64,000 bases of DNA from Nitrospirota bacterium (GTDB taxonomy: Bacteria > Nitrospirota > Thermodesulfovibrionia > Thermodesulfovibrionales > JdFR-88): contig JAKAHV010000002.1 of the NCBI GenBank assembly GCA_021825295.1, positions 3,141 to 67,140 of the forward strand. Direction: 5' to 3'. Made by a program: the position numbers and the translations under genes. Numbering within the stretch: position 1 is the first letter of the stretch; each line of letters begins with the position of its first letter. Below, in pieces: positions 1,194 through 50,936 of this stretch. The notes under the pieces are model-generated. The model saw nothing but the letters and a program-made list of their open reading frames with translations, was not told where the DNA came from and made no database searches.

Positions 1194-1209
1194 CGGGGAG
1201 TCTTCCCGG

Positions 1210-32668: not shown

Positions 32669-34561
32669 ATGCTATCGCTATTGTGGCTTGTGCCTGCCCT
32701 TCCGTTTGCGGGTTTTCTGGCGCTGGCCCTGTTCGGCCGGCGCATGGGGGCTTTCGCGGCGGCGGTCGGGACCGGCTCGGTGGGGCTTTCCGCTTTGTTT
32801 GCCCTGGCCGTGGCGGCCGGTTTCATAAGTTCCCCGCCCCCTGCGCGCATCTATACGCAGAGCCTCTGGGACTGGATAAACGTGGGGGGGTTCAAGCCGG
32901 GCATCCTTCTCTATCTCGATTCGCTTTCCCTGGTGATGGTGCTTGTGGTGACGGTAGTCGGTTTTCTCATCCATCTCTACTCGGCCGAGTTCATGGAGGC
33001 CGACGACGGCTACAGCCGTTTTTTCGCCTACATGAACCTGTTTGTGGGCTCGATGCTCGTGCTGGTGCTGGCCGGCAACCTCCTTCTCCTCTACCTCGGA
33101 TGGGAGGGCGTGGGCCTTTGCAGCTATCTGCTTATCGGTTTCTGGTACAGGCAGCCCGAAAACGGGGCCGCGGCGATAAAGGCTTTCGTGGTGACGCGCA
33201 TCGGGGACACGGCGCTTGCAATCGGGCTTTTCTTCCTCTTCTTGAACCTTGGCACGCTCGATATACAGAAGATGATGAATATGGCCGCGCTCCGCTGGCA
33301 GGCGGGCTCCGCCTACCCGGAGATTGCCGCCGCGCTTATCCTTGGCGGCGCGCTCGGCAAGTCCGCGCAGCTTCCGCTTCAGACCTGGCTGCCCGACGCC
33401 ATGGCGGGCCCCACCCCTGTGTCGGCCCTGATACACGCGGCAACCATGGTGACGGCGGGCGTCTATCTGATCGCGCGGACGAACGTGATTTTCACGATGG
33501 CCCCCGCGGTGCAATTCGCCGTGGCGGTAATCGGCGCGGCAACGCTTCTGCTGTCCGCGGCGAGCGCGCTTGTGCAGCATGACATCAAGCGGGTGCTTGC
33601 ATATTCGACCATAAGCCAGATCGGCTATATGTTCCTTGCCCTTGGGGTCGGGGCCTGGTCCGCCGCTATATTCCACCTGATGACTCACGCCTTTTTCAAG
33701 GCGCTTTTGTTCCTTGGCGCCGGCGCGGTCATCTCCGGACTGGACGGGGAGCACGATATATTCAAGATGGGCGGACTCAGGCGTCAAATGCCCGTTGCCT
33801 TCTGGTGCTTCCTTACGGGGGCCTGCTCGCTTGCGGCCCTTCCCCTGGTGACGGCCGGATTCTACAGCAAGGGGCTCATCCTTTTCAGCGCCTGGCAGTC
33901 CAGGCGGGCGGGCTTCTGGCTGTGGGCGGCCGGCATAGCGGGCGCGCTTCTTACATCCATTTATATCTTCCGGCTGGTGTTCATCGTCTTTTTCGGGAAG
34001 CCGAAGACCGCCGTGGTGAAAAAGCCCGGCCCGCGCATCGTCATCCCGCTTGTTGCGCTCGCCTTTTTGTCCATTGTGGGAGGGTTCGTCAACATGCCCG
34101 CCTTTTTCGGCGTAAAGGATGTTTTCTCGCGTTTTCTGGAAAGCGTGTTTCCCGTGCCGCCCCAGGCGGCCTCCCTGCCGGAGACGGAGCTTCTGCTTGA
34201 AACCGTATCGGCGATAGTCTCCCTTGCGGGCGTGTACGTGGCCTACTTCTTCTTCCTCGCGGCCCCGGAGTATTCCGAGGAGATGGCGCGCACCGCCCCC
34301 GGCAGGGCGCTCGGGAAATTCTGGTTTTCCGGCTGGGGGTTTGACTGGCTCTACGAAAAGGCCCTTGTTTCCCCGTACAGATGGTTTGCGAGGGCAAACA
34401 GGAATGACGCCGTGGACCTCATCTATTCCTTCATAGCGGCCGCAAGCAGGTTTTTCCACTACGGGCTCAGTCTCTCCCAGACGGGCAAGGTGAGGTTTTA
34501 TGCCGCCGTGCTTGCGCTGGGGGCCGTCATCACAATAACCATAGCGGTGCTTGCAAGATGA
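32669..34561 (+). CDS. nuoL: NADH-quinone oxidoreductase subunit L
   Basis: 630 aa antiporter-like subunit. GWEGVGLCSYLLIGFWY...KSAQLPLQTWLPDAMAGPTPVSALIHAATMVTAGVY. Confidence 0.95.
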   Translation: MLSLLWLVPALPFAGFLALALFGRRMGAFAAAVGTGSVGLSALFALAVAAGFISSPPPARIYTQSLWDWINVGGFKPGILLYLDSLSLVMVLVVTVVGFLIHLYSAEFMEADDGYSRFFAYMNLFVGSMLVLVLAGNLLLLYLGWEGVGLCSYLLIGFWYRQPENGAAAIKAFVVTRIGDTALAIGLFFLFLNLGTLDIQKMMNMAALRWQAGSAYPEIAAALILGGALGKSAQLPLQTWLPDAMAGPTPVSALIHAATMVTAGVYLIARTNVIFTMAPAVQFAVAVIGAATLLLSAASALVQHDIKRVLAYSTISQIGYMFLALGVGAWSAAIFHLMTHAFFKALLFLGAGAVISGLDGEHDIFKMGGLRRQMPVAFWCFLTGACSLAALPLVTAGFYSKGLILFSAWQSRRAGFWLWAAGIAGALLTSIYIFRLVFIVFFGKPKTAVVKKPGPRIVIPLVALAFLSIVGGFVNMPAFFGVKDVFSRFLESVFPVPPQAASLPETELLLETVSAIVSLAGVYVAYFFFLAAPEYSEEMARTAPGRALGKFWFSGWGFDWLYEKALVSPYRWFARANRNDAVDLIYSFIAAASRFFHYGLSLSQTGKVRFYAAVLALGAVITITIAVLAR

Positions 34562-34580
34562 GAGGAGCGGGAAGTTTCAG

Positions 34581-36227
34581 ATGATCCTTCTCTGGCTGAT
34601 AATCGTGCCTTTTGCGGGCGGGGTCGCGGCCTGGATTCTCGGCCTGCGCGGAAGGGGCGGAGGATCCGCCGCCAGGTGGGCCTCCATTGCCGCCCTGGCC
34701 GTCGACCTTGCGCTGCTGGCGGCAATTCTGGCCGGCCGCTCCGCCGCTGCCGGCCGGCACGGGGACTTTTTCCTGGAGGCCAGGGCGGGCTGGGTCCCCC
34801 AGTTGGGCATCTCCATCCATCTTGGAATGGACGGCCTGAGCCTTCTGCTTGTATTTCTTACGGTCTTTATGGGCATCGTTTCGGTCGTCGCCTCGTGGAC
34901 CGAGATCACCGAAAGGGCGGGGTTTTTCCATTTCAACCTGTTGTGGTGCCTGGCCGGGGTAATCGGAGTTTTTCTTTCCATGGACCTTTTTCTCTTCTAT
35001 TTCTTCTGGGAGATGATGCTTGTGCCCATGTACTTCCTCATCGCCATATGGGGGCATGAAAGGCGGACTTACGCGGCCATAAAATTTTTCATCTTCACCC
35101 AGCTTGGCGGCCTTTTGATGCTGATGGCTATTCTTGGGCTTTACTTCATCCACGGCTCACAGACAGGCGCATACACGTTCGATTATTTCGATCTCATCGG
35201 CACCCGTATGTCTTCGGCCGCCGCCTTCTGGCTCATGCTCGGCTTTTTCGTGTCATTTGCCGTAAAGCTGCCGGCCGTGCCCGTTCACAGCTGGCTTCCC
35301 GACGCCCATACTGAGGCGCCTACCGCAGGCAGCGTGATACTGGCCGGGCTCCTGCTTAAGACCGGGGCTTACGGGATGCTTCGCTTCATGGTCCCCCTTT
35401 TCCCGGACGCCTCGCAAAGATTCGCGCCCGTGGGAATGGCGGTGGGCATAATCGGCATCCTCTACGGCGCGGTCCTTGCATTCGGCCAGACGGACCTGAA
35501 GAGGCTCATAGCGGACACCAGCATCAGCCATATGGGGTTCATCCTGGTTGGCATATTCGCGTGGAACGGGCTTGCGCTCCAGGGCGTCACGATGCAGATA
35601 ATCAGCCATGCCATAAGCACAGGGATGCTCTTTATTCTTGTCGGGGCGCTCCAGGAGCGCATCCATACCCGCGACATGGACCTCATGGGACGGCTCTGGG
35701 AGAAGGTCCCGGTGATGGGGGGGGTGGCGATGGTCTTCGCCCTTGCCTCGCTGGGGCTGCCCGGCCTGGGGAACTTCGTGGCGGAGTTTCTTATTCTCCT
35801 CGGGGCGTTCAGGGCAAACCCCGCAGCGAGCGCGGCGGCCTCGCTGGGGCTTATAGTTTCGACCGTTTATGCCCTGTGGATAATGCAGAGGGTCTTTCAC
35901 GGCGATGAGCGCACACGGTGGACTTTGCCGGATATGTCCGTCAGGGAAAAAGGTGTCGCGGCTGCCATGATCGTCGCCATAGTCTGGCTCGGCCTCTACC
36001 CGCAGCCAGTGATAAACGAGGCGGCCCCGGCGCTTGACGGCCTCCGGAGGATTTCAATTTCAGGCCCGCAGGCGGTAAAAATCCCGGCGCCTGATTTCAG
36101 GCTGACAGCGGCAGCGAAGGCCGTCCCGTTGCCGGCGGAAGAAGACCCGGCATTCGATAAAAAGGCGCGGGTTGTGCCGGACATCTCGAGCCAAAAATCG
36201 GGGGAAGGCGTGAATGAGCGGCCCTGA
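34581..36227 (+). CDS. nuoM: NADH-quinone oxidoreductase subunit M (with hydrophilic C-terminal tail)
   Basis: ATG 34581 (MILLWLIIVPFAGG). FFWEMMLVPMYFLIAIWG...VKLPAVPVHSWLPDAHTEAPTAGSVILAG. The last ~60 aa are non-membrane (…GPQAVKIPAPDF…KSGEGVNERP). Confidence 0.9.
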   Translation: MILLWLIIVPFAGGVAAWILGLRGRGGGSAARWASIAALAVDLALLAAILAGRSAAAGRHGDFFLEARAGWVPQLGISIHLGMDGLSLLLVFLTVFMGIVSVVASWTEITERAGFFHFNLLWCLAGVIGVFLSMDLFLFYFFWEMMLVPMYFLIAIWGHERRTYAAIKFFIFTQLGGLLMLMAILGLYFIHGSQTGAYTFDYFDLIGTRMSSAAAFWLMLGFFVSFAVKLPAVPVHSWLPDAHTEAPTAGSVILAGLLLKTGAYGMLRFMVPLFPDASQRFAPVGMAVGIIGILYGAVLAFGQTDLKRLIADTSISHMGFILVGIFAWNGLALQGVTMQIISHAISTGMLFILVGALQERIHTRDMDLMGRLWEKVPVMGGVAMVFALASLGLPGLGNFVAEFLILLGAFRANPAASAAASLGLIVSTVYALWIMQRVFHGDERTRWTLPDMSVREKGVAAAMIVAIVWLGLYPQPVINEAAPALDGLRRISISGPQAVKIPAPDFRLTAAAKAVPLPAEEDPAFDKKARVVPDISSQKSGEGVNERP

Positions 36228-37662
36228 TTTCCTTGCGCTCCTGCCGCTTGTGCTTGTCTCGGCCATGCCTGTCGTGGTCATGCTGGCCATCGCCTTCTTC
36301 CGGGACCATGTGCTCGCGGCGGCGCTTACGCTGCTTGGGCTCCTCGTTTGTTTTGCCTCGCTTCCGTTTGCGGCCTCATACGCCCCCAGGCATATAACGC
36401 CGCTTTTGATAATCGACAACTACGCCCTGTTCTACATGGGCCTCATATTTGCCGCGACGTTCGCCGTGGCCGTCCTCTCCTACAGTTACCTTGGGATGCT
36501 CCGCGTGCGGCGCGAGGAGTTTTACGTCCTTCTTCTGCTTGCCGCCGCGGGCTCGTCCGTTCTCGTGGCAAGCGCGCATTTCGCATCTTTCTTCCTGGGG
36601 CTCGAGACCCTGAGCGTGTCGCTTTACGCCCTTGTTTCCTATCCTTCGTCGAGGGAAAAGGCGATTGAGGCGGGCGTGAAATACCTGGTGCTGGCGGCGG
36701 TCTCCTCGGCATTCCTTCTTTTCGGCATGGCGCTTGTTTACGGGCAGCTTGGGACAATGGAGTTTTCGGGGATAGCAGAGGGGGCGGCGGGGCTCCGCGC
36801 TGCAAGCCCGGCGTTTCTTGGCGCCATCGCCCTCATCGTGGTGGGCTTCGGCTTCAAGCTGGCGGTCGCCCCCTTTCACATGTGGACGCCAGACGTGTAC
36901 GAGGGCGCCCCCGCGCCCGTTTCGGCATTCGTGGCCACGGTCTCGAAGGGGGCTGTATTTGCGCTTTTTCTGCGGTACTTCGCGCGGGTGGACATCCACC
37001 AGATGGGCTCCCTGGTGCTGGCCGCCACGGTAATCTCCATAGCGTCGATGTTCACAGGCAACCTGCTCGCCCTCCTTCAGCAAAACGTAAAGCGCATCCT
37101 CGCGTACTCCTCGATAGCGCACCTGGGCTACCTTGTTGTCGCCTTTCTGGCCAGCGGGGCCCTGCGGGTGACGGCGGTTTCATATTACCTGGTCTCCTAT
37201 TTCATCGCGATGCTGGGGGCCTTCGGGGTCGTCTCAGTGCTTTCAGGCAGGGAAGGCGACGCCGTGGACCTCGATGCATACCGCGGGCTATCCTCCAGGC
37301 GGCCGTTCATAACCGGCGTGTTTTCCGCGATGCTTTTTTCCCTGGCCGGCATCCCCCTGACCGCCGGTTTCATAGGCAAGTTCTACGTTATCGCGGCGGG
37401 CGCGGGCTCGGCCCTCTGGCTGCTGATTTCCATGCTGGTGGTAAACAGCGCAATCGGGGTTTACTACTACATCCGCGTGATAATAACCATGTATTCCGCG
37501 AGGGCCGAAGGGGAGACGGCGGAAACCGCCCTTTCCAAGGGGGCCGTTTCCCTCGGGGGCGGGCTTCTTCTGGCCGCGCTCACCCTGGGGCTTGTCTGGC
37601 TTGGCGTCTATCCATCCCCCCTCGTCTCGCTCATCCAGAAGACAATCCAGGGCCTGAGGTAG
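36214..37662 (+). CDS. nuoN: NADH-quinone oxidoreductase subunit N
   Basis: 482 aa. FKLAVAPFHMWTPDVYEGAPAPVSAFVATVSKGA. Overlaps nuoM by 14 nt. Confidence 0.9.
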   Translation: MSGPDFLALLPLVLVSAMPVVVMLAIAFFRDHVLAAALTLLGLLVCFASLPFAASYAPRHITPLLIIDNYALFYMGLIFAATFAVAVLSYSYLGMLRVRREEFYVLLLLAAAGSSVLVASAHFASFFLGLETLSVSLYALVSYPSSREKAIEAGVKYLVLAAVSSAFLLFGMALVYGQLGTMEFSGIAEGAAGLRAASPAFLGAIALIVVGFGFKLAVAPFHMWTPDVYEGAPAPVSAFVATVSKGAVFALFLRYFARVDIHQMGSLVLAATVISIASMFTGNLLALLQQNVKRILAYSSIAHLGYLVVAFLASGALRVTAVSYYLVSYFIAMLGAFGVVSVLSGREGDAVDLDAYRGLSSRRPFITGVFSAMLFSLAGIPLTAGFIGKFYVIAAGAGSALWLLISMLVVNSAIGVYYYIRVIITMYSARAEGETAETALSKGAVSLGGGLLLAALTLGLVWLGVYPSPLVSLIQKTIQGLR

Positions 37663-38510: not shown

Positions 38511-39539
38511 TTATCCAATCTTCAGCACCTTTGCCCCGCGGATGGCGCGCTTCTTGATATCGAGGAGCGCCCGGTTGGCGTCCTCAAGCGGATATTCCTG
38601 CACCTCGGGCCTGATGGGGATTTCGGCGGCGAGGGCCAAAAACTCCTCCACATCGCCCCTCGTGATGTTTGCGACGCTCTTAATCTCCTTTTCCATCCAG
38701 AGGTCCCTGGAATAATCCATCTCCAGGAGGCGCTCTTTATCCGCCCCCTCTTTCCTGATGGCGTTGATCACGAGCCGGCCTCCTCTTTCGATGCATCCAA
38801 GGGCGGCGACAACCGGCCGCCAGGCGGGGGTTGTATCTATAACCGAACGGAGCTTTGAGGGCGGCTCCTCCCCTGTATCCCCGGCCCAGAACGCGCCAAG
38901 CTCCTTTGCAAAAACCCTTTCGGCGGGCGTCCTGGAAAATACGAACACCTTCGAGTCCGGATATTTATGGCGGATCATGGAAAGCACAAGATGACCGGAC
39001 GCGCCAAACCCGGTAAGCCCGATGCTGTCGCCGCCGGCAATTGCCGCGAGTTTCAGCGAGCGGTATCCCACGGCGCCCGCGCACAGAAGCGGCGCGGCCT
39101 CCGAATCGGAGAAAAGACCCGGTATCCGGTAGGCAAAATCCTGCGGGACCGCGATATACTCGGCATATCCCCCGTTTGCGTCCCTGCCGGTTGCCCTGAA
39201 ATCATCGCAGAGGTTCTCCATTCCTTCCAGACAGAACCTGCACCGTCCGCAGGCCGAATATATCCATGCAATCCCTACGCGTTCGCCGATTGCAAACCGT
39301 GAGGCGTCTTTTCCCGCGCCTTCCACCCTGCCTATGACCTGGTGCCCGGGGATGACGGGCAGCCGTGGCGGGAGTGTCCTGCCCTCTATCTCGTCAAGCT
39401 CCGTGTGGCAGACCCCGCAGCGGGTGACCCTCACAAGTATCTCCCCCGGTCCTGGCGCGGGCTTTTCAACTTCGGCAAGCTCCAATGGGGAAGCGTTGCG
39501 AGTGAAATCGGAGATTTCCCTCAGGACCATCGCCTTCAT
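38511..39539 (-). CDS. zinc-dependent alcohol dehydrogenase family oxidoreductase
   Basis: GAAGGAGG SD before ATG 39539 (MKAMVLRE). GVCHTELDEIEG...PVIPGHQVIGRV. Structural-Zn cysteines CGRCRFCLEGMENLC. GFGASGHL Rossmann motif. The upstream 86 codons of the ORF-track entry cover REP-like repeats and are rejected. Confidence 0.85.
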   Translation of the reverse strand: MKAMVLREISDFTRNASPLELAEVEKPAPGPGEILVRVTRCGVCHTELDEIEGRTLPPRLPVIPGHQVIGRVEGAGKDASRFAIGERVGIAWIYSACGRCRFCLEGMENLCDDFRATGRDANGGYAEYIAVPQDFAYRIPGLFSDSEAAPLLCAGAVGYRSLKLAAIAGGDSIGLTGFGASGHLVLSMIRHKYPDSKVFVFSRTPAERVFAKELGAFWAGDTGEEPPSKLRSVIDTTPAWRPVVAALGCIERGGRLVINAIRKEGADKERLLEMDYSRDLWMEKEIKSVANITRGDVEEFLALAAEIPIRPEVQEYPLEDANRALLDIKKRAIRGAKVLKIG

Positions 39540-39665
39540 TTCGCTTAAAACCTCCTTCGCCAAGTCTTCGTCCGGGCACAAAAAGCCGCCGGACGCCTTA
39601 TAATAAAAGATGATACACCATTTCATTAAGATGGAAACCTGCGCGACTGAATCACCCCACAGCAA

Positions 39666-39755
39666 GGGGACTGGTCCCCAGGCTGCCCTCACCCCAACCC
39701 TCTCCCATTGGGAGAGGGAGGAGCAAAGGGACTGGTCCCGAAGCGGAGGGTGAGG
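39666..39755. repeat. composite nested palindromic (REP-like) element
   Basis: GGGGACTGGTCCCC (39666-39679). CCTCACCC (39688-39695) pairs with GGGTGAGG (39748-39755). CCCTCTCCC-att-GGGAGAGGG (39698-39718). GGGACTGGTCCC (39728-39739). Confidence 0.8.
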
Positions 39756-39812
39756 ATGACTCAGGGAGACACTGCAGCAAGCTACAGGGAATTGCAAGTT
39801 AAAAAATAAAAA

Positions 39813-42800
39813 ATGCCAATGAACATGATATGCAGCCTGGACTACCTGATAGGCACGCTTGCCACCGCCTACAAGGGCGTGATCACCACGCTTGTTGCGA
39901 AGGATTTCTGCATCTGCGAGACGGATGGGACATCAGTTTTCAAGGGCACGCTCATTTCAATGCCCGCCGGAAATTATTTCGCCTCGCTCATAAAAGGCGG
40001 TGAGGAGCTTGTCCGCGCGCCCATTAGCGAGCTGGGCGGCTTCGAACTGGAGGCCGAAAGCGCGCGGACGGAGAAGGCCCGCGACCTCCAGATCGATATC
40101 CTTCAAAACGGAAAGCACATAGGCACCTTCCTGCTCAAGAGGGACGAGGCGGGCGCTGCTTTCTACACACCGGCAGTAGAGCTTTCGGACGAGATAAAGG
40201 GGGTCGATTTCAGACTGCTCACCAGGCCGCTGGAAGGCAGTCCCGGGCTTCTCCGGAAGGCGGAGGACGTCGTCTACATGGCGCTCTCCGTGAAAAAGGA
40301 CTGGAAGAAATTCTCCGATGAGCTGCAGGGACTGGCGACCGATCTTTTCTGGCAGCGGAAGGAGGTCTTTTACAACTCGTTTGGCATCTTCGTCAAATTC
40401 TCCCTTCTCGCCGCTGAAAAGACCGGGGCGGAAAAAAACCTCTCGAATTTCCTGGATTTGATTGAGCAGCCGCTTTTAAGGGAGACCGATGCCGTCCGGC
40501 TAGGCGGGGCCGCCGGCCTGTGGCTGGATGCGTTAAAGGGTTCAAGCGCGGAGCTTTCCCGCCGTCTCTGCCAATCGGCAAGGGTCCTTTCCCTTATAAA
40601 CCGGAAATTCCCGGGGGCCGGCATCAGACCGGCGCTCCACGCCCTTTTTGACTCTCTTTCGGAGAGGATAAAAAAGGCGCCGGTGCTGGGCGATGAGACG
40701 ATTGACCAACTAAGGGGTTTCGTTTCGCCGGAGGAGTTTGGCGCGATGGAGATATACGGCGAGGGCGCAAAGAGGCGGCTTTTGGCGGGCCTGGAGAAGG
40801 CCGGAAGCCTGCTCGACGCCGCCGGGGAGAAGGCGGCGACGGCGTATACGGATTTCTTCCGTGAGATGGAAAGGCCGGAGCTTGCCCTTTTGGATGATTT
40901 TGAGCTGGTGGAGGGTTTTTTCGGCGCGGTCTCGAAACATTTCAGCGTGGAAAGCGCGCCCGCCTTCACCCGCGTCCTGTTCGAGGTCCTGTCGCTCCTG
41001 GGGGGCCTCTCGGGCCGGGCCGCCGGCGCGCTTGTCGCCGGAGTCGTGGGGTTCGCTGAGCGGCTGATGGCGGCGGAAAGGACCGATCTGTGCGCGGAGC
41101 TTCTCTCCATGTCCGCCGCGGAGGGCATAGGGCTTCAAAAGGAGGTGGTCCTCAACGCGGCGATGGCCTCTCGTATACTGGCTTCGGGCAATGAGGGGCT
41201 CATGGCCCTCTATAAAGATATTTTGAAGAGAATAGTGATCCCTCCGCCCGGTATCCGGGGATATTCGTCCGAGACGTGGGCGGAGAGCGCTGACCCGCTG
41301 CATCTCGAACTCATCTCGAAATTTCTGGAAGTGCTCGGCGCGGGCGGCGATTTGATGGACGACGTGAAGGCCCATGTGATATGCAATCTCTTTTTAAGCG
41401 GCGCTTTCATCCCGGACGACAGGCTCTTCCAGCGCAGGGTCTCCGCATATCTCAATTCGTCCGCCATGAGGGGTAATTTTCTCCTGAACTACATGCTTTT
41501 AAAGAAGCTCCCGGTTTATTTCAATGAGGTGGGGGCCACCAACAGGATAAGGGATTATACCACCCAGATAGACTCCTGGGGGAACGACCCAGTCCTCTAT
41601 TTCCTGAGAAAACAGGTCCACGTAAACGCAAGCAACTACAATGTACGCCTTGTCGAGGGCATTATCCGGGCCTGGGCGGCAAATGACCCCGCGCTCCTGG
41701 AGGCCCTTGTGCCCCCGGAGGTTTTCAGGAATTTCGACAGAGGTCTCCTCGATGGCTATCACCGCGTCATAAAACCCCTTTTCGCGGCGTTAAACGTCTT
41801 CGACGGGAAAGGGGACGTCCTCTTCGAGGAGAAACTCCTTGATGTCCCCGAAGACAGGCTGGAAGAGGAGGTTGAAAAGATACCCGCCGCCGGAGAGGTG
41901 CGCCGGAAAACGCTCTTTCTCTGCAGGATATATCAGGAGATAGTAAAAAAATACACCCTCCTTGGCGGCTCACGCCCGGGGGAGGGGGCCGGTCTTCGCG
42001 AATTGATTGACAGGCTGGACACGCTCGGCGTGAAGATACTCTCGCCGGAGAGGACGGAGCCCCGGGAGTCCTTCTATTTTAAAAGGCACATCGCCTTTGG
42101 CATCCCGTCGGTCCTTGGCACCTATCATGAGGAGAAATTCGACTCGTTCGCGGAATTTCTGAGGCTCGGGGAAAGGGCAAGGGTGGTGTTCGAGGAGATC
42201 ATCCACAGGATCGAAGCGGGCGGCGGAAGAGCCGATGAAAACACAGCCGGAGACATCCCGGGATGGCTGGAGACGCCGGGTCTGGCAAACCGGTTTCTGG
42301 CGGCGCACGGGCTCGGCAATTTCCAGGCGGAAGAATTCTCGGCGGTCCTTCAGTCCGGCGGGCTTGGGCTCGAACAGATCCTGGACGTCCTGCGCATGTG
42401 GCAGAAGGAGATAAAGTGGGCCGTGGAATCTTTTAACCGTCTCTTTTTCGCGCCGCTGGGCGATCTCCTGGGGGCGGTCCGGCCAGCTCCCCTCCCGGAT
42501 TACCTGATGAACCTGGACCCAAATGAGAAGGATTTTGCGGAGAAGGCCGCGGACATCGTGATCAGGAACATGATGACGAGCATACCGGGCTTTACGGAGG
42601 CCGACAGACTGATAAACGCCATGGCGGGCAGGATATCGTCTTTTATCGAGCGAAACAGGATCGAGGGGAAGGCCCGGGCCGGGGAAGCCGTTGCCATGGC
42701 GTCGCGCCTTGCGCCTGAGGAGCAGACGGCGGACTTCTTCATGATGGATGAGCTTTCGGACGCCCGGGCGATGAGGCTCGCCCCGCTGATCGGGGGAAAG

Positions 42801-44243
42801 GCAAAAAACCTGGTCTATCTTCACAACAGGGGATTTTTGGTGCCGCCGGGCGCGGTCTTTTCCTCCCGGCATACGTTTGCCTTCAGGCAGTACACGGAGA
42901 GCGCCGGTTTCAGGGCGGCCCTCGGAAAGGCGGCCGGGGAGATAGAGCAAAGGACCGGGCAGGTCTTTGGCGGCCGCGGCAATCCGCTTTTCCTCTCCGT
43001 AAGAAGCGGCTCCTATATATCAATGCCCGGGATACTGGTGTCGATCCTTTACTGCGGAATGAACGGCGATACGGTAAAGGGCCTCGCTGAAAACGCAAAA
43101 AATCCGCTTCTGGCATGGGATTCCTACAGGAGGTTTATTGAGCATTTCGGGACCGCCGTCTTCGGGCTCGGGCAAGAATACTTCGATGGCATTAAAAAAG
43201 GTTTTCTGGAGAAATACGGGGCGGACTCCCTGCGGCAGTTGGACGCACTCCGGATGGAGGAGCTGGCCGGCCTTTATCTCAATTCCCTTTCGGGCATTGG
43301 GCTGAAAATTCCAGATGACGTCCATGAACAGTTGAGGTTGTGCGTAAGGGCCGTTTACGCGTCATGGTTTGGCGGGAGGGCCGTGCAGTTTTCAAGGCTC
43401 ACCGGGATGTCGCAGGGATGGGGCACCTCTGTGGCCCTCATGCGGATGATATACGGCAACGCCCCCGGCGCGGGGGCTTCGGTTTTTTTTACCAGGAACC
43501 CGGCCACGATGAAGGAGGAGGTGTTTGGAGAGACCAAGGCGCATGCGACCGGCGACGAGCTGGTGGGCGGCGCCCGCGTGTCCATGCCGATTTCCAGGAG
43601 GGGCAAGATCGAAGGGCCCAGCCTGGAGGAGATCGACCCGGATCTCTTCCGGATGCACGGCGCGCTTGCCAGGCGCATTGAGGGCGCGATGGGGGGGCTT
43701 CCGCAGGAGGTGGAGGTCACGTACACGATGGAGGACGGGCAGAGGAAGATATATGTCCTTCAGACAAGGAGGATGGAGTTTGACGCCCGGTTCATTGAAC
43801 GGTTCGAGGAGATATGCAGGATGGAGTCCAGGGTGATAGGAAGGGGGATAGGGGTGCACGGCGGGGCCGTAAGCGGGGTCGCCTCCTTTTCCTATTCCGC
43901 CGATGCCATACGGGAGCTAAGGCGGAAGACCGGCCTGCCTGTGATACTTCTCCGGCAGACGGCAAGCACCGCCGATGTCTCTCTGATGAGCGAGGCCGGA
44001 GGGATAATCGCGGCCTCCGGGGGGGCGACCTCCCATGCCTCTGTCCTGGCGCAAAAATTCAACCTCGTTGCTATAGCGGGCTGCGAAGAGCTGCATTTCG
44101 GCCCCTGCCCGCAGGGGGCTGAAGGGTTTTGCGCGCGGATAGGAAACGCCGTCATCGAGGAGGGCCAGCCCATAAGCATGGACGGCCAGACCGGCCTCAT
44201 CTTCTCCGGCATATGCCTGAATACGGCAAAAAAGAGGTGGTAG
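39813..44243 (+). CDS. 1476-aa protein: unassigned ~950-aa N-terminal region + PPDK-type ATP-grasp and phosphohistidine (PEP-utilizer mobile) domains, no PEP/pyruvate TIM barrel
   Basis: C-terminal blocks: LIGGKAKNL, PLFLSVRSGSYISMPGILVSILYCGMN, NPLLAWDSYRRFIEHF, FFTRNPAT, IYVLQTRRM, GGATSHASVLAQ, ISMDGQTGLIF. The N-terminal 2.9 kb has coding-like codon usage but no motif I recognise. Confidence 0.85.
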   Translation: MPMNMICSLDYLIGTLATAYKGVITTLVAKDFCICETDGTSVFKGTLISMPAGNYFASLIKGGEELVRAPISELGGFELEAESARTEKARDLQIDILQNGKHIGTFLLKRDEAGAAFYTPAVELSDEIKGVDFRLLTRPLEGSPGLLRKAEDVVYMALSVKKDWKKFSDELQGLATDLFWQRKEVFYNSFGIFVKFSLLAAEKTGAEKNLSNFLDLIEQPLLRETDAVRLGGAAGLWLDALKGSSAELSRRLCQSARVLSLINRKFPGAGIRPALHALFDSLSERIKKAPVLGDETIDQLRGFVSPEEFGAMEIYGEGAKRRLLAGLEKAGSLLDAAGEKAATAYTDFFREMERPELALLDDFELVEGFFGAVSKHFSVESAPAFTRVLFEVLSLLGGLSGRAAGALVAGVVGFAERLMAAERTDLCAELLSMSAAEGIGLQKEVVLNAAMASRILASGNEGLMALYKDILKRIVIPPPGIRGYSSETWAESADPLHLELISKFLEVLGAGGDLMDDVKAHVICNLFLSGAFIPDDRLFQRRVSAYLNSSAMRGNFLLNYMLLKKLPVYFNEVGATNRIRDYTTQIDSWGNDPVLYFLRKQVHVNASNYNVRLVEGIIRAWAANDPALLEALVPPEVFRNFDRGLLDGYHRVIKPLFAALNVFDGKGDVLFEEKLLDVPEDRLEEEVEKIPAAGEVRRKTLFLCRIYQEIVKKYTLLGGSRPGEGAGLRELIDRLDTLGVKILSPERTEPRESFYFKRHIAFGIPSVLGTYHEEKFDSFAEFLRLGERARVVFEEIIHRIEAGGGRADENTAGDIPGWLETPGLANRFLAAHGLGNFQAEEFSAVLQSGGLGLEQILDVLRMWQKEIKWAVESFNRLFFAPLGDLLGAVRPAPLPDYLMNLDPNEKDFAEKAADIVIRNMMTSIPGFTEADRLINAMAGRISSFIERNRIEGKARAGEAVAMASRLAPEEQTADFFMMDELSDARAMRLAPLIGGKAKNLVYLHNRGFLVPPGAVFSSRHTFAFRQYTESAGFRAALGKAAGEIEQRTGQVFGGRGNPLFLSVRSGSYISMPGILVSILYCGMNGDTVKGLAENAKNPLLAWDSYRRFIEHFGTAVFGLGQEYFDGIKKGFLEKYGADSLRQLDALRMEELAGLYLNSLSGIGLKIPDDVHEQLRLCVRAVYASWFGGRAVQFSRLTGMSQGWGTSVALMRMIYGNAPGAGASVFFTRNPATMKEEVFGETKAHATGDELVGGARVSMPISRRGKIEGPSLEEIDPDLFRMHGALARRIEGAMGGLPQEVEVTYTMEDGQRKIYVLQTRRMEFDARFIERFEEICRMESRVIGRGIGVHGGAVSGVASFSYSADAIRELRRKTGLPVILLRQTASTADVSLMSEAGGIIAASGGATSHASVLAQKFNLVAIAGCEELHFGPCPQGAEGFCARIGNAVIEEGQPISMDGQTGLIFSGICLNTAKKRW

Positions 44244-44338
44244 ACCGGCCTGAAATCAGGCCCGCCCCGCAAATCTGACGCAGGCCCGCTCGCGATGGGG
44301 ATATTGGATTTTCATCCCGGGAGGCGTTAGAATGTACG

Positions 44339-44764
44339 ATGCCTGAGGACTTTTTACCGGACGAAATCCTTCATCCTGTCGGCGTCGTCCGCTCCGCGCT
44401 GAAATCCCGCTCCGAATGCCCGAAGCAGGGGCATGAAGGGGCCCCTGACGCGTGGATTGAGATTGCTCCGGCCTTTGTCCCCGCGCTTGACGGCCTGTCA
44501 GCCGGACAGGAGGTCCTGTTGCTTACGTGGTTTCATGAAGGGCGGCGCGATGTGCTGAAAGTCCACCCCCGGGACAACCTGGATAAGCCCCTTCGCGGAG
44601 TCTTTGCCACGAGGTCGCCGGACCGCCCAAACCCGATCGGCCTTCACCGGGTCGAGATACTTGAAATCGGGCAGGGCCGGATACATGTCCGTCCGCTCGA
44701 GGCCCTGGACGGCACTCCGGTCATCGACATAAAACCGCTTCTCTCCAGGTCCGGGGAAGGATAA
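44339..44764 (+). CDS. trmO: tRNA (t6A37) methyltransferase TrmO / TsaA (YaeB) family
   Basis: HPVGVVRSALKSRSECPKQG...VLLLTWFHEG...RGVFATRSPDRPNPIGLHRVEILEI...LDGTPVIDIKP. Confidence 0.85.
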   Translation: MPEDFLPDEILHPVGVVRSALKSRSECPKQGHEGAPDAWIEIAPAFVPALDGLSAGQEVLLLTWFHEGRRDVLKVHPRDNLDKPLRGVFATRSPDRPNPIGLHRVEILEIGQGRIHVRPLEALDGTPVIDIKPLLSRSGEG

Positions 44765-45731: not shown

Positions 45732-45824
45732 ATGGAGTTTTTTTACTGGATAGGCGGCATCGTTACAGTGGTCCTGCTTGTTTACCTGATGATAGCGCTT
45801 TTAAAGCCGGAGATATTCTCATGA
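45732..45824 (+). CDS. kdpF: potassium-transporting ATPase subunit F
   Basis: [30 protein letters not shown]. Single TM with the ...YL.IALL.PE.F ending typical of KdpF. Its stop overlaps the kdpA ATG (ATGA). Not in the ORF track. Confidence 0.7.
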   Translation: MEFFYWIGGIVTVVLLVYLMIALLKPEIFS

Positions 45825-47620
45825 CCGGAAACGATATTTTACAGACCGTTTTGTATTTCGGGGCCCTCGCGGTCCTCGCGGGGCCGCTTGGCCTGTACAT
45901 GGCGAGGGTTTACGAGGGCGCGCCCTGCGGCCTGGACGGAGTGCTGGGCCCGCTGGAGCGCCTCTTTTACCGGGTCTGCGGCATCCGTCAGGACGAGGAG
46001 ATGGACTGGAAACAGTATGCCACGGCGGTCCTCATATTCAGCGCGGCCGGCGTGTTCCTGCTTTATTTTCTTCAGCGCGTTCAGGGCGCGCTGCCGCTCA
46101 ATCCGCAAAAATTCGGCGCCGTGACCCCGGGGCTTTCCTTCAACACCGCCCTGAGTTTTGTGACAAACACCAACTGGCAGAACTACAGCGGGGAGACCGC
46201 GATGAGCTATCTTACCCAGATGGCCGGGCTGGCCGTGCAGAACTTCCTTTCGGCCGCGGCCGGAATGGCGGCGCTCGTCGCACTCATTCGCGGTTTCAAG
46301 CGGCACTCCGCCAATACCATAGGCAATTTCTGGGTGGATATGGCCCGCGGCACGCTTTACATACTGATGCCCCTTGCGCTTGTCTATTCGCTCCTTCTGG
46401 TCTCCCAGGGGGTTGTGCAGAGTTTCGGCAAATACAGGACGGTTGACCTTGTCGAGGCCGGCAACTACGAAATCCCGAGGCTGGATGCCGGCGGCAACGC
46501 CGTAAAAGACGCAAACGGGGACCCCGTTATGGAAAAGGCGAAGGTGACGCGTCAGGTGATCCCGCTTGGCCCCGCGGCCTCACAGATAGCGATAAAGCAG
46601 CTCGGCACAAACGGAGGCGGGTTTTTCAACGTCAACTCCGCCCATCCGTTTGAAAACCCCACCGCCTTTTCGAATTTCCTGGAGTGCCTTGCGATACTGC
46701 TGATACCCGCCGCGCTTTGCATAACCTTCGGGAAGATGGTTGGGGACAGGAGGCAGGGATTGGCCCTGCTTGCGGCCATGTTTCTGATACTGGTCCCGCT
46801 TACTTTCCTGTGCGCGTGGGCGGAGCAGGGCGGCAATCCGCATCTTGCCTCCATGGGGGTCGATCAGGCCGCAAGCGCCCTGCAGCCGGGCGGCAACATG
46901 GAGGGAAAGGAGGCCAGGTTCGGGATCGCCGATTCCACCATCTGGGCCGCCGCCACCACCGCGGCCTCAAACGGCTCTGTAAACTCCATGCACGATTCCT
47001 ATATGCCCCTGGGCGGCATGGTGCCGATGCTGCTCATACAGTTTGGGGAGGTCATATTCGGGGGCGTGGGCTCCGGGCTCTACGGAATGCTCATATTCGC
47101 CATCATAACCGTCTTTGTGGCCGGCCTGATGGTCGGCCGCACGCCGGAATACCTGGGCAAGAAGATAGAGATATTCGAGATGAAGATGGCGGCCCTGGTG
47201 GTGCTCATTGTAAACGCCCTCATTAAACTCGGAACGGCGATAGCCGTCTCGACGAAGGCGGGGACGGCCGGTATCGCGAACCCCGGGCCGCACGGTTTTT
47301 CCGAGGTGCTTTACGCCTTTTCGTCCTTCGCCGGCAATAACGGAAGCGCCTTCGCCGGCCTGAACGGAAACACGGTTTTCTACAATACGATCGGGGGGAT
47401 ACTCATGTTTTTCGGGAGGTTCTGGGTGATCATCCCGGTGCTGGCCATTGCGGGTTCGCTCGCCAAAAAGAAGCAGGTGCCGGCGGGGCTCGGGACGCTG
47501 CCGACCCATACCCCCCTTTTCGTGGTGTTTCTTATGGGGGTCATAGTGATAGTCGGCGCCCTGGCTTTCATGCCGGGCCTGGCGCTGGGCCCCATCGCGG
47601 AACAGTTGATGTACCACTGA
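45821..47620 (+). CDS. kdpA: potassium-transporting ATPase subunit A
   Basis: 599 aa. ...[22 protein letters not shown]...[22 protein letters not shown]...[11 protein letters not shown]... Confidence 0.95.
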
Positions 47621-47700
47621 TTCCAAAGAGAGCTGTTGTTGGGGTGAAATGGCCGGGAAAAACGGCCGGGAAAAATTTCTACAAAAAGGATTTAGGTATC

Positions 47701-49776
47701 ATGAGCGCGAAAAAAATAAAAAGGTCTCTTTTTGAGCCGAAGATTGTGCGCAGGGCGCTTCTGGATTCTGTCGGGAAGCTGAACCCTGTCTACCAGATCA
47801 AAAACCCGGTGATGTTCGTCGTGGAGACAGGCAGCGTCCTGACGACCCTGCTTTTCCTCCATGCTCTTATCACGGGCAGGGGCGAGGCGTCTGCCGTCTT
47901 CATCCTGCAGATTTCAGTCTGGCTGTGGATAACGGTGCTCTTCGCCAACTTCGCGGAATCCATGGCGGAGGGCCGTGGAAAGGCGCAGGCCGACGCCCTC
48001 AGAAAGACGAGGAAGGATGTTGTTGCCAAGCGCCTCTCCAAACCGGCCAGGGACTCCGGGGTTACGCAGGTCCCCTCTTCCGGGCTGAAGAAGGGCGATG
48101 TCGTCCTGGTGGAGGCGGGCGACATCGTCCCGATGGACGGCGAGGTGATCGAAGGCGTGGCCTCGGTCAATGAGAGCGCTATTACAGGCGAGAGCGCGCC
48201 GGTAATCAGGGAGTCCGGCGGCGACCGGAGCGCCGTCACCGGCGGCACGCTGGTGCTTTCGGACTGGATAGTGGTAAGGGTAACCGCCAGCCCCGGCGAG
48301 ACTTTTCTGGACAGGATGATAGGCATGGTGGAAGGCGCGAAGCGCCAGAAGACGCCAAACGAGATTGCGCTCGATATACTGCTGGCGGGGCTAACCATCA
48401 TATTCCTGCTGGTGACGGCGACCCTGCTGCCGTTTTCGATATTCAGCGTGAAGGCCGCGGGGCAGGGCAGCCCCGTTACCATAACGGTCCTCGTGGCGCT
48501 GCTGGTCTGCCTGATACCCACCACAATCGGCGGGCTCCTGTCGGCCATCGGCATCGCGGGGATGGACAGGATGATACAGGCCAACGTCATCGCCATGTCC
48601 GGGCGCGCCGTGGAGGCGGCAGGCGACGTGGATGTGCTTCTGCTGGACAAGACCGGCACGATAACGCTTGGCGACCGGCAGGCCACCCTTTTCATCTCCG
48701 CGCCGGGCGTTGATGAAAAGAACCTTGCCGACGCGGCCCAGCTCTCTTCACTGGCCGATGAGACGCCCGAGGGGCGGAGCATCGTGGTCCTGGCGAAGGA
48801 GAAATACGGCATCCGCGAAAGGGACATACATGCCCTTGGAGCGCAGTTCGTGCCCTTTTCCGCGCAGACAAGGATGAGCGGGGTGGACCTGAACGGCCGG
48901 CAGATACGCAAGGGCGCGGCGGACGCCGTGGAGAAATATGTGCAGAAGCAGGGCGGGACCTTTCCCGCCGGTGTCCGCGCGGCCGTGGACGACATCGCCA
49001 GGCAGGGGGCCACGCCCCTTGTAGTCGCGGAAGGCCCAAGCGTATTGGGCGTGGTCCGCCTCAACGACATCATCAAGGGGGGCATAAAAGAGCGTTTTGC
49101 AGAGATGAGGCAGATGGGCATAAAGACGGTCATGATCACGGGCGACAACCCGCTTACGGCGGCCGCGGTGGCGGCGGAGGCCGGCGTGGACGATTTCCTG
49201 GCGCAGGCCACCCCGGAGACCAAGCTGAAGCTCATCCGCGAGCATCAGGCGGGCGGCCGGCTTGTGGCCATGACCGGCGACGGCACAAACGACGCGCCCG
49301 CCCTGGCCCAGGCCGATGTGGCCGTCGCCATGAACACCGGCACGCAGGCGGCAAAGGAGGCCGGCAACCTGGTGGACCTCGATTCAAACCCCACAAAGCT
49401 CATTGAGATAGTGGAGATAGGAAAGCAGCTCCTGATGACGCGCGGAACGCTGACGACATTCAGCATATCCAATGACGTCGCCAAATATTTCGCCATCCTG
49501 CCGGCCGCTTTCGTCTCGATATACCCAGCCCTTGGGGCGCTGAATATCATGCGCCTGTCCACGCCGCAGAGCGCCGTGCTCTCCGCGGTCATCTTCAACG
49601 CGTTGATCATCATTTTTTTGATCCCGCTTGCGCTGCGCGGCGTCAAGTACAAACCCCTGGGCGCGCAGACCGTGCTTCGCAACAACGCGCTCATCTACGG
49701 AGTGGGAGGGCTGATAGTGCCTTTTATCGGAATAAAGCTTATAGACATGCTCATAACGGCCCTTCATATGGCCTGA
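47701..49776 (+). CDS. kdpB: potassium-transporting ATPase subunit B (P-type ATPase)
   Basis: ATG 47701 ([16 protein letters not shown]). Phosphorylation motif [27 protein letters not shown] hinge. Confidence 0.95.
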
Positions 49777-49785
49777 GGAGGAAAA

Positions 49786-50358: not shown

Positions 50359-50432
50359 TGCAGTCCACTCTTGTTAAAATAATAAGGATGAAATGGATAG
50401 CGAGCGTATCCTCCTGCGTACTGCGGGACTTG

Positions 50433-50547: not shown

Positions 50548-50564
50548 TGCCGGGACGGATTGAC

Positions 50565-50885: not shown

Positions 50886-50936
50886 AGACGTCCGGGGAAA
50901 GGAAGGCCGGAATATCCCGGGTTTGATAAGGGGAAA

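Follow-up and report, generated by a model that had tools for sequence, protein, structure and literature searches.

A 1476-residue protein encoded in the window, as we call the whole 64,000-nucleotide stretch of Nitrospirota DNA analysed here, is genuine and conserved and belongs to an enzyme family, as yet uncharacterised, that joins a PPDK-type ATP-grasp and phosphohistidine module to a helical core with no recognisable relatives. The catalytic residues of PPDK are intact in the protein, the arrangement is conserved throughout the family, and in many relatives the gene is syntenic with a GAPDH-type gene; this synteny is a new finding that hints at an unknown step of lower glycolysis or gluconeogenesis. 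From its sequence we infer that the gene product is a catalytically competent PPDK-derived phosphotransferase (dikinase), there being no biochemical data for any member. Our leading explanation, to which we give somewhat less than an even chance, is a dikinase that is active on a small molecule in a step linked to GAPDH; this function is untested.

Integrity and distribution of the family gene

The open reading frame is uninterrupted from its ATG to the stop codon; in the public annotation this same protein (P0001) is called from a start two codons further on, at 39819, and has 1474 aa. The GC-rich nested palindrome upstream (Table 1) probably has no bearing on what the enzyme does. One explanation of the gene would be an artefact, either two genes joined near 42.7 kb by misassembly or the decaying remnant of a PPDK pseudogene. 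No support for this was found, the one irregularity noted being a minor 375-nt contig of run X1 that joins 41634 to 41912. Run X2 has one 6452-nt contig that is identical to the window over 39778-44500, contigs of X1 and X3 also cross the 42.7-kb junction, GC3 is equal in the two halves of the frame (0.73 and 0.75; the earlier note had described the codon usage of the N-terminal part as normal), and conservation is strong over the entire protein length. Together with the recurrence of the architecture described below, these observations refute the artefact, including the chimera that the earlier note had named as what would overturn its own interpretation.

The architecture recurs in more than 200 assemblies, at 209 genome loci; 73 full-length relatives align collinearly, and the family totals over 1,900 protein clusters. 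It falls into two clades, clade I from Nitrospirota, which includes the window protein, and clade II from Bacteroidota, Cloacimonadota and Ignavibacteria. The only parts common to both clades are a helical core of ~500 aa (aa ~450-950) and the PPDK module. A search with the core against 1.84 billion representatives returned 242 matches; the full-length ones are all 1278-1546 aa long with the core at ~330-1000, and members that were Pfam-scanned or had precomputed Pfam matches all carry PPDK_N and PEP-utilizers downstream of it. The core was found in no architecture but this long one, as expected if its partnership with the swivel module is obligate.

Table 1. Features of the family gene and its upstream flank, in window coordinates
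Feature	Nucleotides	Residues	Strand	Basis or remark
GC-rich nested palindrome	39686..39805		.	directly upstream of start codon; dispersed repeat in source metagenome
Full ORF	39813..44243	1476 aa	+	contiguous in independent contigs
N-terminal beta-sandwich domain	39813..40142	1-110	+	AF2 secondary structure; clade-I-specific
Clade-I-specific helical region	40212..41147	~134-445	+	weak conservation; clade II alignment begins only at aa 450
Family-defining helical core	41160..42662	~450-950	+	conserved in both clades; AF2; presumed acceptor/third-substrate domain
Core motif IPDDRLFQR		533-541	+	conserved
Core motif LPVYFNEVGA		566-575	+	conserved
Core motif FLRKQVHVNAS		597-607	+	conserved
Beta-hairpin with invariant loop	42063..42131	751-773	+	K757-R758-H759...S766..G769.Y771.E773; cross-clade invariance
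Core motif YFKRHIAFGIPSVLGTYHE		755-773	+	conserved
Flexible linker, core to ATP-grasp	42663..42734	~951-974	+	pLDDT 54-59; no alignment consensus
PPDK-type ATP-grasp nucleotide-binding domain	42735..43787	~975-1325	+	Pfam, NCBIfam, PDB profile, residue comparison
LIGGKAKNL		992-1000	+	motif check
PLFLSVRSGSYISMPGILVSILYCGMN		1058-1084	+	motif check
NPLLAWDSYRRFIEHF		1097-1112	+	motif check
GASVFFTRNPAT		1221-1232	+	motif check
IYVLQTRRM		1313-1321	+	motif check
Swivelling phosphohistidine domain	43938..44216	~1376-1468	+	Pfam, PDB profile, residue comparison
GGATSHASVLAQ		1403-1414	+	contains His1408
His1408 codon CAT	44034..44036	1408	+	equivalent to catalytic His455 of C. symbiosum PPDK
ISMDGQTGLIF		1454-1464	+	motif check

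A PPDK-type module without the PEP/pyruvate barrel

Aligned to PPDK, aa ~975-1468 correspond to its residues 14-508; for the C. symbiosum enzyme the alignment covers residues 14-339 and 380-508. Pfam places PPDK_N at aa 1026-1255 (E 2e-14) and the PEP-utilizers mobile domain at aa 1376-1461 (E 7e-14), and the family profile matches PPDK crystal structures with E 1e-95, only over chain residues ~13-510. The PPDK model TIGR01828 is matched at positions 15-336 of its 865 and no others, with 265.7 bits where the cutoff is 843; the PEP synthase (PEPS) models score the protein at 42-53 bits. The PEP/pyruvate TIM barrel has no match anywhere in the 1476 residues, and the protein stops 8 aa past the swivel domain at the equivalent of PPDK residue ~515, where that barrel would begin. 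Reading frame, domain matches, module alignment and motifs, each of the latter present where the earlier note had read it, bear out its description of a PPDK-derived protein that lacks the barrel.

The equivalents of PPDK K22, R92, R135, E323, Q335, R337, T453 and H455 are all conserved. The ATP-grasp domain carries K996, R1064 (LSVRSG), R1106-R1107 (DSYRRF), LPQEVE at 1296-1301 and Q1317/R1319 (LQTRR); in the swivel domain Thr1406 is the counterpart of PPDK Thr453. The PPDK-equivalent catalytic positions are at least 90% conserved among 73 clade I homologues. Because these PPDK-type residues are intact, the protein is most naturally read as a phosphotransfer enzyme.

A novel helical core

Over the first ~950-975 aa, Pfam and NCBIfam give no match at E<0.1, PDB sequences nothing better than E 0.1 and PADLOC none. 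Foldseek against the PDB finds no fold match for a model of aa 1-995 (best E 2e-3, to generic solenoids, the weak matches being karyopherin-like and HEAT proteins) and none for a model of the core (best E 0.096, TM at most 0.16). With neither a sequence nor a fold match from two confident models, we rejected a known substrate-binding domain in this region, the other finding by which the earlier note would have been overturned. The proposal that a novel N-terminal region sets the acceptor is supported as a reading by the novelty of the core and the intact catalytic residues, while both activity and acceptor remain inferred.

The N-terminal region had also been called largely helical, which holds for aa 134-950 and fails for residues 1-110, a predicted beta-sandwich. 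The latter is highly conserved in the Nitrospirota clade, with C7, C33, H102 and D95 among its invariant residues, has no homology to the clade II N-terminus, and could serve in ligand or metal binding or in redox sensing. As judged by alignment, only aa ~450-950 form the family-wide conserved domain, residues 1-445 being specific to the Nitrospirota clade. The AF2 model of this core is one globular body (pLDDT 92.6, pTM 0.92). Across clades of only ~25% identity, 18 of its residues in four motifs are invariant; they are mostly charged and rich in Arg/Lys/His, including the basic R580, R599, K600, H603, K713, K757, R758, H759 and R918 and the acidic D535, D587, E773 and D931, and none is a Cys equivalent to the PPDK proton donor. 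The core thus behaves like an enzyme domain, although its role as acceptor site is inferred. The hairpin at aa 751-773 is present in both AF2 models (its loop has low pLDDT in model 1), and with its invariant loop it is the best candidate for an acceptor or phosphate-binding site.

Linkage to GAPDH-type genes

Zn-ADH and trmO, which the earlier note had raised as possible conserved neighbours, are not conserved partners of the family; a GAPDH-type gene is. At the clade II loci examined, a distinct long GAPDH-like gene (gapB') follows the family gene (X) except on one short contig, and in the set L076-L085 every locus with sufficient flank has a tight gapA-X-gapB' operon. A GapB'-type gene also occurs in each of three further clade II subclades (25-36% identity to the L077 protein) and in a complete 4.2-Mb genome; its distance downstream is 30-63 nt for three of these four cases and ~1 kb for the other. 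GapB' retains the catalytic Cys/His and the phosphate-site equivalents T179, R195, T208 and R231, so it should make or use the acyl phosphate of a phosphorylated C3-like substrate. Metatranscriptome contigs match one clade II X gene and its gapB' with zero mismatches and none match the flanks, which is weak evidence in favour of our leading explanation. In Nitrospirota, a canonical GAPDH gene lies directly downstream in one subclade (five non-redundant loci); since such adjacency is missing from most Nitrospirota loci, the linkage is weakest for the window's own clade. No PGK-like gene occurs in any of 85 loci, which is uninformative on whether the host genomes lack PGK.

A proposed reaction and its alternatives

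In the reaction that we favour, the ATP-grasp domain would take ATP and place a phosphoryl group on His1408. The swivel domain is the last part of the protein and so has only one linker to hold it; it would then ferry the phosphate to a second active site, not a PEP/pyruvate TIM barrel, in the all-helical core N-terminal to the ATP-grasp domain, where the invariant basic and acidic residues may provide binding for a small anionic acceptor as well as a metal. As the module resembles PPDK far more than PEP synthase, the likeliest recipient of the gamma-phosphate would be Pi, with AMP and PPi as products; this PPi-forming stoichiometry is inferred from the sequence comparison. Genetic coupling to GAPDH-type dehydrogenases makes a lower-glycolysis acid the likeliest acceptor, in the simplest case by 3-phosphoglycerate + ATP + Pi <-> 1,3-bisphosphoglycerate + AMP + PPi. 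The enzyme would then be an AMP-forming analogue of phosphoglycerate kinase that feeds or drains its partner GAPDH. That the acceptor is specifically 3-phosphoglycerate is an inference which, taken on its own, we consider rather unlikely.

Pairs of an acyl-phosphate-forming kinase and a GAPDH/ASD/ArgC-type reductase form a recurrent module (PGK+GAPDH, AK+ASD, NAGK+ArgC), and transfer from phosphohistidine to a carboxylate is known from succinyl-CoA synthetase. From standard hydrolysis energies, the 3-phosphoglycerate reaction is at about +4 kJ/mol, the PGK direction at about +19 kJ/mol. Against the GAPDH-linked dikinase, no member of the superfamily is known to form an acyl phosphate, the window has no GAPDH gene within its 64 kb, the solenoid-like helical fold with its karyopherin-like weak matches is more typical of scaffolds that bind proteins than of sites for small molecules, and a hemerythrin sensor fused in 2/34 clade II members fits a regulated or regulatory protein.

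The fold and the hemerythrin also count in favour of the main rival, a regulatory phosphotransferase in which the ATP-grasp and His domains autophosphorylate while the helical scaffold docks GAPDH/GapB' or other enzymes, which it would phosphorylate or regulate allosterically, perhaps prompted by redox or O2 signals. Its precedent is M. tuberculosis VadK (Rv1127c), a PPDK without the PEP/pyruvate domain; it phosphorylates itself on His and has enzymes of the methylcitrate cycle as binding partners (PMC13400623). The Rv1127c-type model NF004531 matches the window protein (E 1e-56), albeit with a score of 192.8, far under its cutoff of 456; the hemerythrin and the Cys/His-rich conserved beta-sandwich of clade I look like sensor additions, and the tight X-GapB' pairing would suit a regulator and its target just as well. 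Against this rival, the 18 invariant core residues in their four short motifs resemble a catalytic or ligand pocket, not a protein interface; moreover, a 1400-aa regulator of a single enzyme would be costly, and the phospho-acceptor target of VadK itself is not established. We regard this regulatory role as unlikely, if by no means negligible.

The family might instead phosphorylate something unrelated to glycolysis, be it a xenobiotic, a polymer, a lipid or a cofactor, much as rifampicin phosphotransferase (RPH), glucan-water dikinase and phenylphosphate synthase do with their own acceptors; for the Nitrospirota clade, the GAPDH adjacency would then have no bearing. The superfamily is certainly versatile (RPH, PMC4844700; HpeHI kinase, PMC12167813), clade I has N-terminal domains of its own, and neither the window locus nor most clade I loci have a conserved metabolic neighbour. 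Yet the two clades do not differ in the motifs of the presumed acceptor domain, so they should share their chemistry, and in clade II the GAPDH linkage is consistent; nor is there a signal peptide, carbohydrate-binding module, resistance-gene context or match to the RPH model NF041857. We judge such an acceptor improbable. More doubtful still is that the enzyme is a genuine pyruvate/PEP dikinase, its TIM barrel exchanged for a non-homologous helical domain and its PPDK chemistry retained, in which case the 'pyruvate, orthophosphate dikinase' label that JGI gives many members would be functionally right. The module is indeed of PPDK rather than PEP synthase type, the invariant Asp/Glu and Arg/Lys could bind Mg2+ and PEP, and GAPDH linkage puts the protein in lower glycolysis. 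However, Pfam, PDB and Foldseek searches found no homology to any PEP/pyruvate-binding fold, the PPDK proton donor has no invariant counterpart, PGK and not PPDK is classically paired with GAPDH, and no selective reason for replacing a working barrel is evident.

Comparison with known systems

PPDK (EC 2.7.9.1; C. symbiosum 1KBL/1DIK) is clearly homologous through the ATP-grasp domain, linker and swivelling domain, including the ATP-site residues and T-S-H catalytic motif; we infer the same ATP to His~P chemistry and probably the same Pi/PPi partial reaction. It differs in its C-terminal barrel, in lacking the ~975 additional N-terminal residues with the new helical domain, and in the position of the third domain, which in the window protein is presumed to precede the ATP-grasp domain and so leaves the His domain singly tethered. 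Phosphoglycerate kinase has no homology to the family and would be a functional analogue only under our leading hypothesis; the likeness, in GAPDH gene neighbourhood and interconversion of 3-PG and 1,3-BPG, is as hypothetical as the contrast between its direct ADP/ATP transfer and an AMP/PPi-linked route through phosphohistidine.

Like VadK, the family is a PPDK derivative that lost the TIM barrel and kept the ATP-grasp domain and catalytic His; both are linked to enzymes of central metabolism, physically for VadK and genetically for the family. VadK, ~490 aa long without an added domain, is from Actinomycetes, whereas the family is from Nitrospirota and Bacteroidota and has a ~500-aa conserved new domain and clade-specific N-termini. 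The plant glucan, water and phosphoglucan, water dikinases are likewise giant (~1400 aa), with an acceptor defined by N-terminal domains as is presumed for the family. Glucan, water dikinase bears CBM45/CBM20 starch-binding modules and has the His domain ahead of a C-terminal ATP-grasp domain, and no homology of these dikinases to the N-terminal region of the window protein was detected. RPH (PMC4844700) shares with the family an ATP-grasp domain, an acceptor domain other than a TIM barrel (in the family, a presumed one) and a C-terminal, singly tethered His swivel, as well as the AMP-forming phosphotransfer that we propose. Its acceptor domain has no sequence or fold similarity to the presumed one of the family (no RPH structure, though present in the PDB library, is among the 50 Foldseek matches listed) and lies between the ATP-grasp and His domains, and RPH is PEP-synthase-like, the window protein PPDK-like.

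An ATP-grasp and phosphohistidine module without the PEP/pyruvate barrel

The window member of X, the dikinase-like gene family under study, is an open frame without interruption that encodes 1476 aa; the identical public protein P0001 has a gene call two codons shorter. All of the motifs that the earlier note had named are found in this protein at the positions it gave, and the codon of His1408 is CAT (44034-44036), as it had stated. A Pfam scan of the protein placed PPDK_N at aa 1026-1255 and the PEP-utilizers mobile domain at aa 1376-1461, both above their gathering thresholds, and returned no third domain beside them; the match to PF00391, the His swivel domain, has an E-value of 7e-14, and the GGATSH motif is present. 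The window protein thus has the domain pair of the PEP-utilising/His-swivel dikinase superfamily (PPDK, PEP synthase (PEPS), glucan-water dikinase, rifampicin phosphotransferase, phenylphosphate synthase), a PPDK_N ATP-grasp and a mobile His domain in one polypeptide; the catalysis of the superfamily, ATP -> AMP turnover through phosphohistidine and transfer to an acceptor, is inferred for it. Alignment with C. symbiosum PPDK reveals that K22, R92, R135, E323, Q335, R337, T453, and H455 are all conserved; the ATP-site equivalents in the window protein are K996, R1064, R1106/1107, the E of LPQEVE, Q1317, and R1319, and the catalytic H455 aligns to His1408.

The PEP/pyruvate TIM barrel, which the earlier note had reported missing, is indeed absent: there is no Pfam PEP-utilizers_C match, the C-terminus corresponds to PPDK residue ~515, and the ORF ends 68 aa past His1408, where PPDK enters its second linker and the barrel. 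PPDK crystal structures are matched by the family profile (E 1e-95) over chain residues ~13-510 only, and the PPDK (EC 2.7.9.1) equivalog model TIGR01828 of NCBIfam scores 265.7 bits vs a cutoff of 843.45, covering only model positions 15-336 of 865. Since the PPDK residues are kept and the protein ends before the barrel, the half of PPDK that loads ATP and carries the phosphate is, to judge from the sequence, intact and the PEP/pyruvate half gone.

Integrity of the ORF and spread of the family

A chimeric misassembly near 42.7 kb would have undone this reading, as the earlier note recognized. The source of the window is a mine-drainage metagenome, of which four runs contain the junction region. 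Contigs of the independent sequencing runs X1 (41613-43826) and X3 (41011-44500) cross the supposed junction, a single 6452-nt contig of run X2 covers 39778-44500 with zero differences, and GC3 is the same in both halves of the ORF. More decisive than the contigs is the recurrence of the architecture: a search with aa 1-950 alone returned 80 proteins, nearly all of 1450-1546 aa with the same C-terminal domains, and a scan of GTDB species genomes found 209 loci. Taken together, these results exclude an artefact. A minor 375-nt contig in X1 joins 41634 to 41912 inside the ORF and leaves out 277 nt, a length not divisible by 3; the main contigs run through this stretch without a break, and the join reflects either a minor strain variant or an artefact of the assembly graph.

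Family members were defined by the motifs DxxLFQR, PVYFNE(V/I)GA, FLRKQxHV, and KRHIAxGIPSxxGxYxE, followed by the ATP-grasp and His domains, in a protein of ~1350-1550 aa. The family comprises more than 1,900 protein clusters from environmental, digester, and gut/rumen-type anaerobes and splits by N-terminus into two clades: clade I, of the Nitrospirota/Thermodesulfovibrionales type, includes the window protein, and clade II (1877 clusters at 90% identity, E<=1e-10) spans Bacteroidales, Cloacimonadota, Ignavibacteria, and others.

A helical core found only with the PPDK module

An AlphaFold2 model of aa 1-995, built with 73 homologues, has a pLDDT of 85.7 and a pTM of 0.75. The earlier note had described the N-terminal region as largely helical; in the model this holds for aa 134-950, which are all-helical save for a beta-hairpin at 751-772, and fails for aa 1-110, which form a beta-sandwich. 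A floppy linker (~951-974) separates the helical region from the ATP-grasp. Comparison of distant relatives indicates that, among the N-terminal regions, only aa ~450-950 are common to the whole family. This core, modelled alone, reaches a pLDDT of 92.6 and a pTM of 0.92, and 18 of its residues, lying in four motifs, are invariant across the clades at ~25% identity; the window protein has all 18 and all four family motifs.

No known substrate-binding domain was recognized in the N-terminal region, in agreement with the earlier note, by Pfam, PDB profile, or Foldseek fold searches: the PDB profile search gave nothing below E 0.1, Foldseek against the PDB found no match for the core (best E 0.096, TM<=0.16), and the aa 1-995 model returned generic alpha-solenoids only (E >= 2e-3, TM ~0.1). 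An exhaustive HMMER search of 1.84 billion representatives found the core in only 242 clusters, in which all full-length members are 1278-1546 aa long, and found no other architecture carrying it; the PPDK module lies downstream of the core in every member that was Pfam-scanned or had precomputed Pfam hits.

Each clade also has N-terminal features of its own. The clade I beta-sandwich is the most conserved part of the clade-I-specific region, with 22 invariant residues including C7, C33, D95, and H102; it may bind a metal or act in redox sensing or chemistry. An N-terminal hemerythrin (HHE) domain is added in 2 of 34 scanned clade II members, e.g. P0126, and may place the protein under the control of O2, iron, or redox state there.

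Coordinates of features in the window and at related genome loci (L numbers), and invariant residues of the core
Feature	Location	Strand	Remark
nuoM- and nuoN-type complex I subunits	34551-37662		upstream of X in window
Zn-ADH, divergent	38511-39797	-	upstream of X in window
GC-rich nested palindrome, ~120 nt	39686-39805		directly 5' of X start codon
X, window member	39813-44243	+	
Beta-sandwich of clade I X	39813-40142		aa 1-110
trmO and OMP gene			downstream of X in window
kdpA-kdpB-kdpC operon (complete), then kdpD	45821-53621		downstream of X in window
Invariant core residues	D535, P567, A575, R580, D587, R599, K600, H603, K713, Y714, K757, H759, S766, G769, Y771, E773, R918, D931		cross-clade alignment
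gapB'	L077 13209-14462		
gapB'	L090 4149-5402		
gapB'	L092 10128-11381		
gapB'	L088 11319-12680		
gapB'	L091 10506-11651		
X with hemerythrin domain (P0126)	L086 1166-5788		clade II
IS605 OrfB/TnpB (Cas12f-like) gene	L001 6335-7567		one Nitrospirota genome

Genetic linkage of X to GAPDH-type genes

Across the family, only GAPDH recurs as a neighbour. Every Bacteroidota-type locus whose flank is long enough has a tight operon of gapA (334 aa), X (~1365 aa), and gapB' (~417 aa), the last encoding the long GAPDH-like protein GapB'. A GapB'-type gene is also present in a complete 4.2-Mb genome and in three more clade II subclades, whose X proteins are 25-36% identical to that of L077; its distance downstream of X is 30-63 nt in three of these four cases and ~1 kb in the other. 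At all clade II loci in which GapB' was observed it is downstream of X, and no conserved genes other than the gap genes were found around clade II X. A canonical GAPDH lies directly 3' of X at five non-redundant Nitrospirota loci, an adjacency seen in one clade I subclade. The GAPDH gene is absent at a short clade II contig (L086) and at a divergent clade I locus (L087), and the whole 64-kb window contains no GAPDH homologue, so that the window itself does not meet the family trait of an adjacent GAPDH-type gene. A 1468-aa ORF between X and gapB' in L078 was considered and rejected as a paralogue.

GapB' represents a distinct long GAPDH subfamily of 381-453 aa (TIGR01534 score 282.8 vs a cutoff of 367.2). 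Its catalytic Cys and His are nevertheless retained, as are the residues that form the phosphate site in phosphorylating GAPDH. The sequence carries three insertions, and a 'GREVG' motif that follows beta-2 may reflect NADP preference. Metatranscriptome contigs match one clade II X and its gapB' with zero mismatches and none fall on the flanks, which is weak evidence of co-expression. Neither X nor GapB' matched the PADLOC defence models. A PGK-motif scan of 85 loci found none; this covers the loci only and says nothing about presence or absence in whole genomes.

A possible reaction and its alternatives

X combines an intact PPDK-type ATP site and His with a confidently modelled new domain that bears invariant basic and acidic residues, and its pairing with a phosphorylating GAPDH-type dehydrogenase is conserved. 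That it is an active small-molecule dikinase in a GAPDH-linked step is an inference, which we hold with somewhat less than even confidence. Kinases that make an acyl phosphate classically pair with GAPDH-family reductases, which makes 3-phosphoglycerate (3-PG) the simplest acceptor; this specific assignment is nonetheless unlikely to be the right one. Equally speculative is the complete scheme, in which X would be an AMP/PPi-linked "3-phosphoglycerate, phosphate dikinase" and would turn 3-PG into 1,3-BPG and back via phosphohistidine, with a dedicated GapB' and a catalytic domain of new fold. ATP would phosphorylate His1408, and the swivel domain, singly tethered at the C-terminus as in rifampicin phosphotransferase (RPH), would bring the phosphate to the helical core, where the KRH hairpin loop and an Arg/Lys cluster would bind the anionic acceptor, a placement that is inferred. 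Because the module is PPDK-like and not PEPS-like, Pi would probably take the gamma-phosphate, giving AMP and PPi. From standard free energies, 3-PG + ATP + Pi -> 1,3-BPG + AMP + PPi lies at ~ +4 kJ/mol vs ~ +19 kJ/mol for PGK, so the proposed reaction would be reversible, and strongly gluconeogenic with pyrophosphatase.

X may instead be a regulatory phosphotransferase like M. tuberculosis VadK, a PPDK without the barrel that autophosphorylates and binds methylcitrate-cycle enzymes, and the sole relevant precedent found in our literature searches (PMC13400623). Such a role would accord with the solenoid-like fold of X, with the N-terminal additions that resemble sensors, and with the absence of a neighbouring GAPDH at most clade I loci. 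It accords less well with the dense charged motifs that do not vary, and we consider it somewhat unlikely. Proteins of the VadK/Rv1127c type have ~490-530 aa and consist of the ATP-grasp and His domains only, whereas the window protein has 1476 aa with a conserved extra domain and scores 192.8 bits on NF004531 vs a cutoff of 456. True PPDK chemistry on a new scaffold appears highly improbable. PPDK is the closest relative of the window protein by sequence, but the protein lacks the TIM barrel and falls short of the TIGR01828 equivalog score, both of which define PPDK, and should therefore not be filed as such. An unrelated acceptor, with the GAPDH adjacency of no relevance in the Nitrospirota clade, is a distinctly unlikely reading. 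For RPH, NF041857 gave no match to the window protein at E<0.1, the RPH order of ATP-grasp, RIF-binding domain, and His domain differs from that of the window protein, and no RPH chains were among the 50 Foldseek matches listed. In size and logic X resembles glucan-water dikinase. By analogy, it would work like the His-swivel dikinases; in topology it is like RPH, and in evolutionary route like VadK.

Implications

X is a new dikinase branch with a novel domain, inferred to be that of the acceptor, and an unexpected conserved link to GAPDH. Within the small superfamily of His-swivel dikinases, novel biochemistry has so far come with every new acceptor domain, as in PEP synthesis, starch phosphorylation, rifampicin resistance, and phenol activation; new in X are a presumed acceptor domain for which no sequence or structural relative was found and the conserved pairing of its gene with that of a special GAPDH-like dehydrogenase. 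Should this pairing have a catalytic basis, a new reaction would enter the most conserved stretch of glycolysis/gluconeogenesis, and energy-yield calculations for PPi-using anaerobes would change. A 3-PG dikinase would give energy-limited anaerobes (Thermodesulfovibrionia, Bacteroidales, Cloacimonadota, Ignavibacteria) an enzyme of central carbon metabolism that had gone unrecognised, one that could stand in for phosphoglycerate kinase without being homologous to it. Its effect would depend on which way the reaction runs: gluconeogenesis would become nearly irreversible, or the energy of PPi would be saved in glycolysis. If the pairing instead reflects regulation, the very recent VadK concept of a PPDK turned regulator would reach other phyla.

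No source gives X a specific name, and in our literature searches neither its architecture nor a 3-PG dikinase was described, nor any pairing of a PPDK-like gene with GAPDH. JGI labels many members 'pyruvate, orthophosphate dikinase', and Thermodesulfovibrionia and Bacteroidales MAG reconstructions may for this reason wrongly infer PPDK activity from X.

Genomic surroundings of clade I X

The divergent Zn-ADH and trmO, which the earlier note had raised as possible conserved neighbours, are common to the closest relatives only, as are the nuo and kdp genes; other clade I lineages have cytochrome oxidase, haem biosynthesis, or unrelated genes nearby. An Rfam search upstream of X in the window and eight related loci found no riboswitch or leader, and the sole Rfam match in the window (IRES_HIF1, E 0.21, on the palindrome) is noise. 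The palindrome folds at -63 kcal/mol (z -2.4) and has no second copy in the 64 kb of the window. In run X1, the Logan contigs reach a depth of 1207 over the palindrome vs 72 on the flanks, a ratio of ~17, and have many different loose ends there, so that it resembles a dispersed REP/MITE-like repeat of the mine-drainage community. The Zn-ADH ORF has probably been called too long at the 5' end; its ADH_N domain begins at aa 116 and its TTG start overlaps the palindromic repeat. At one Nitrospirota locus (L001), the TnpB gene lies between haem-biosynthesis genes and X.
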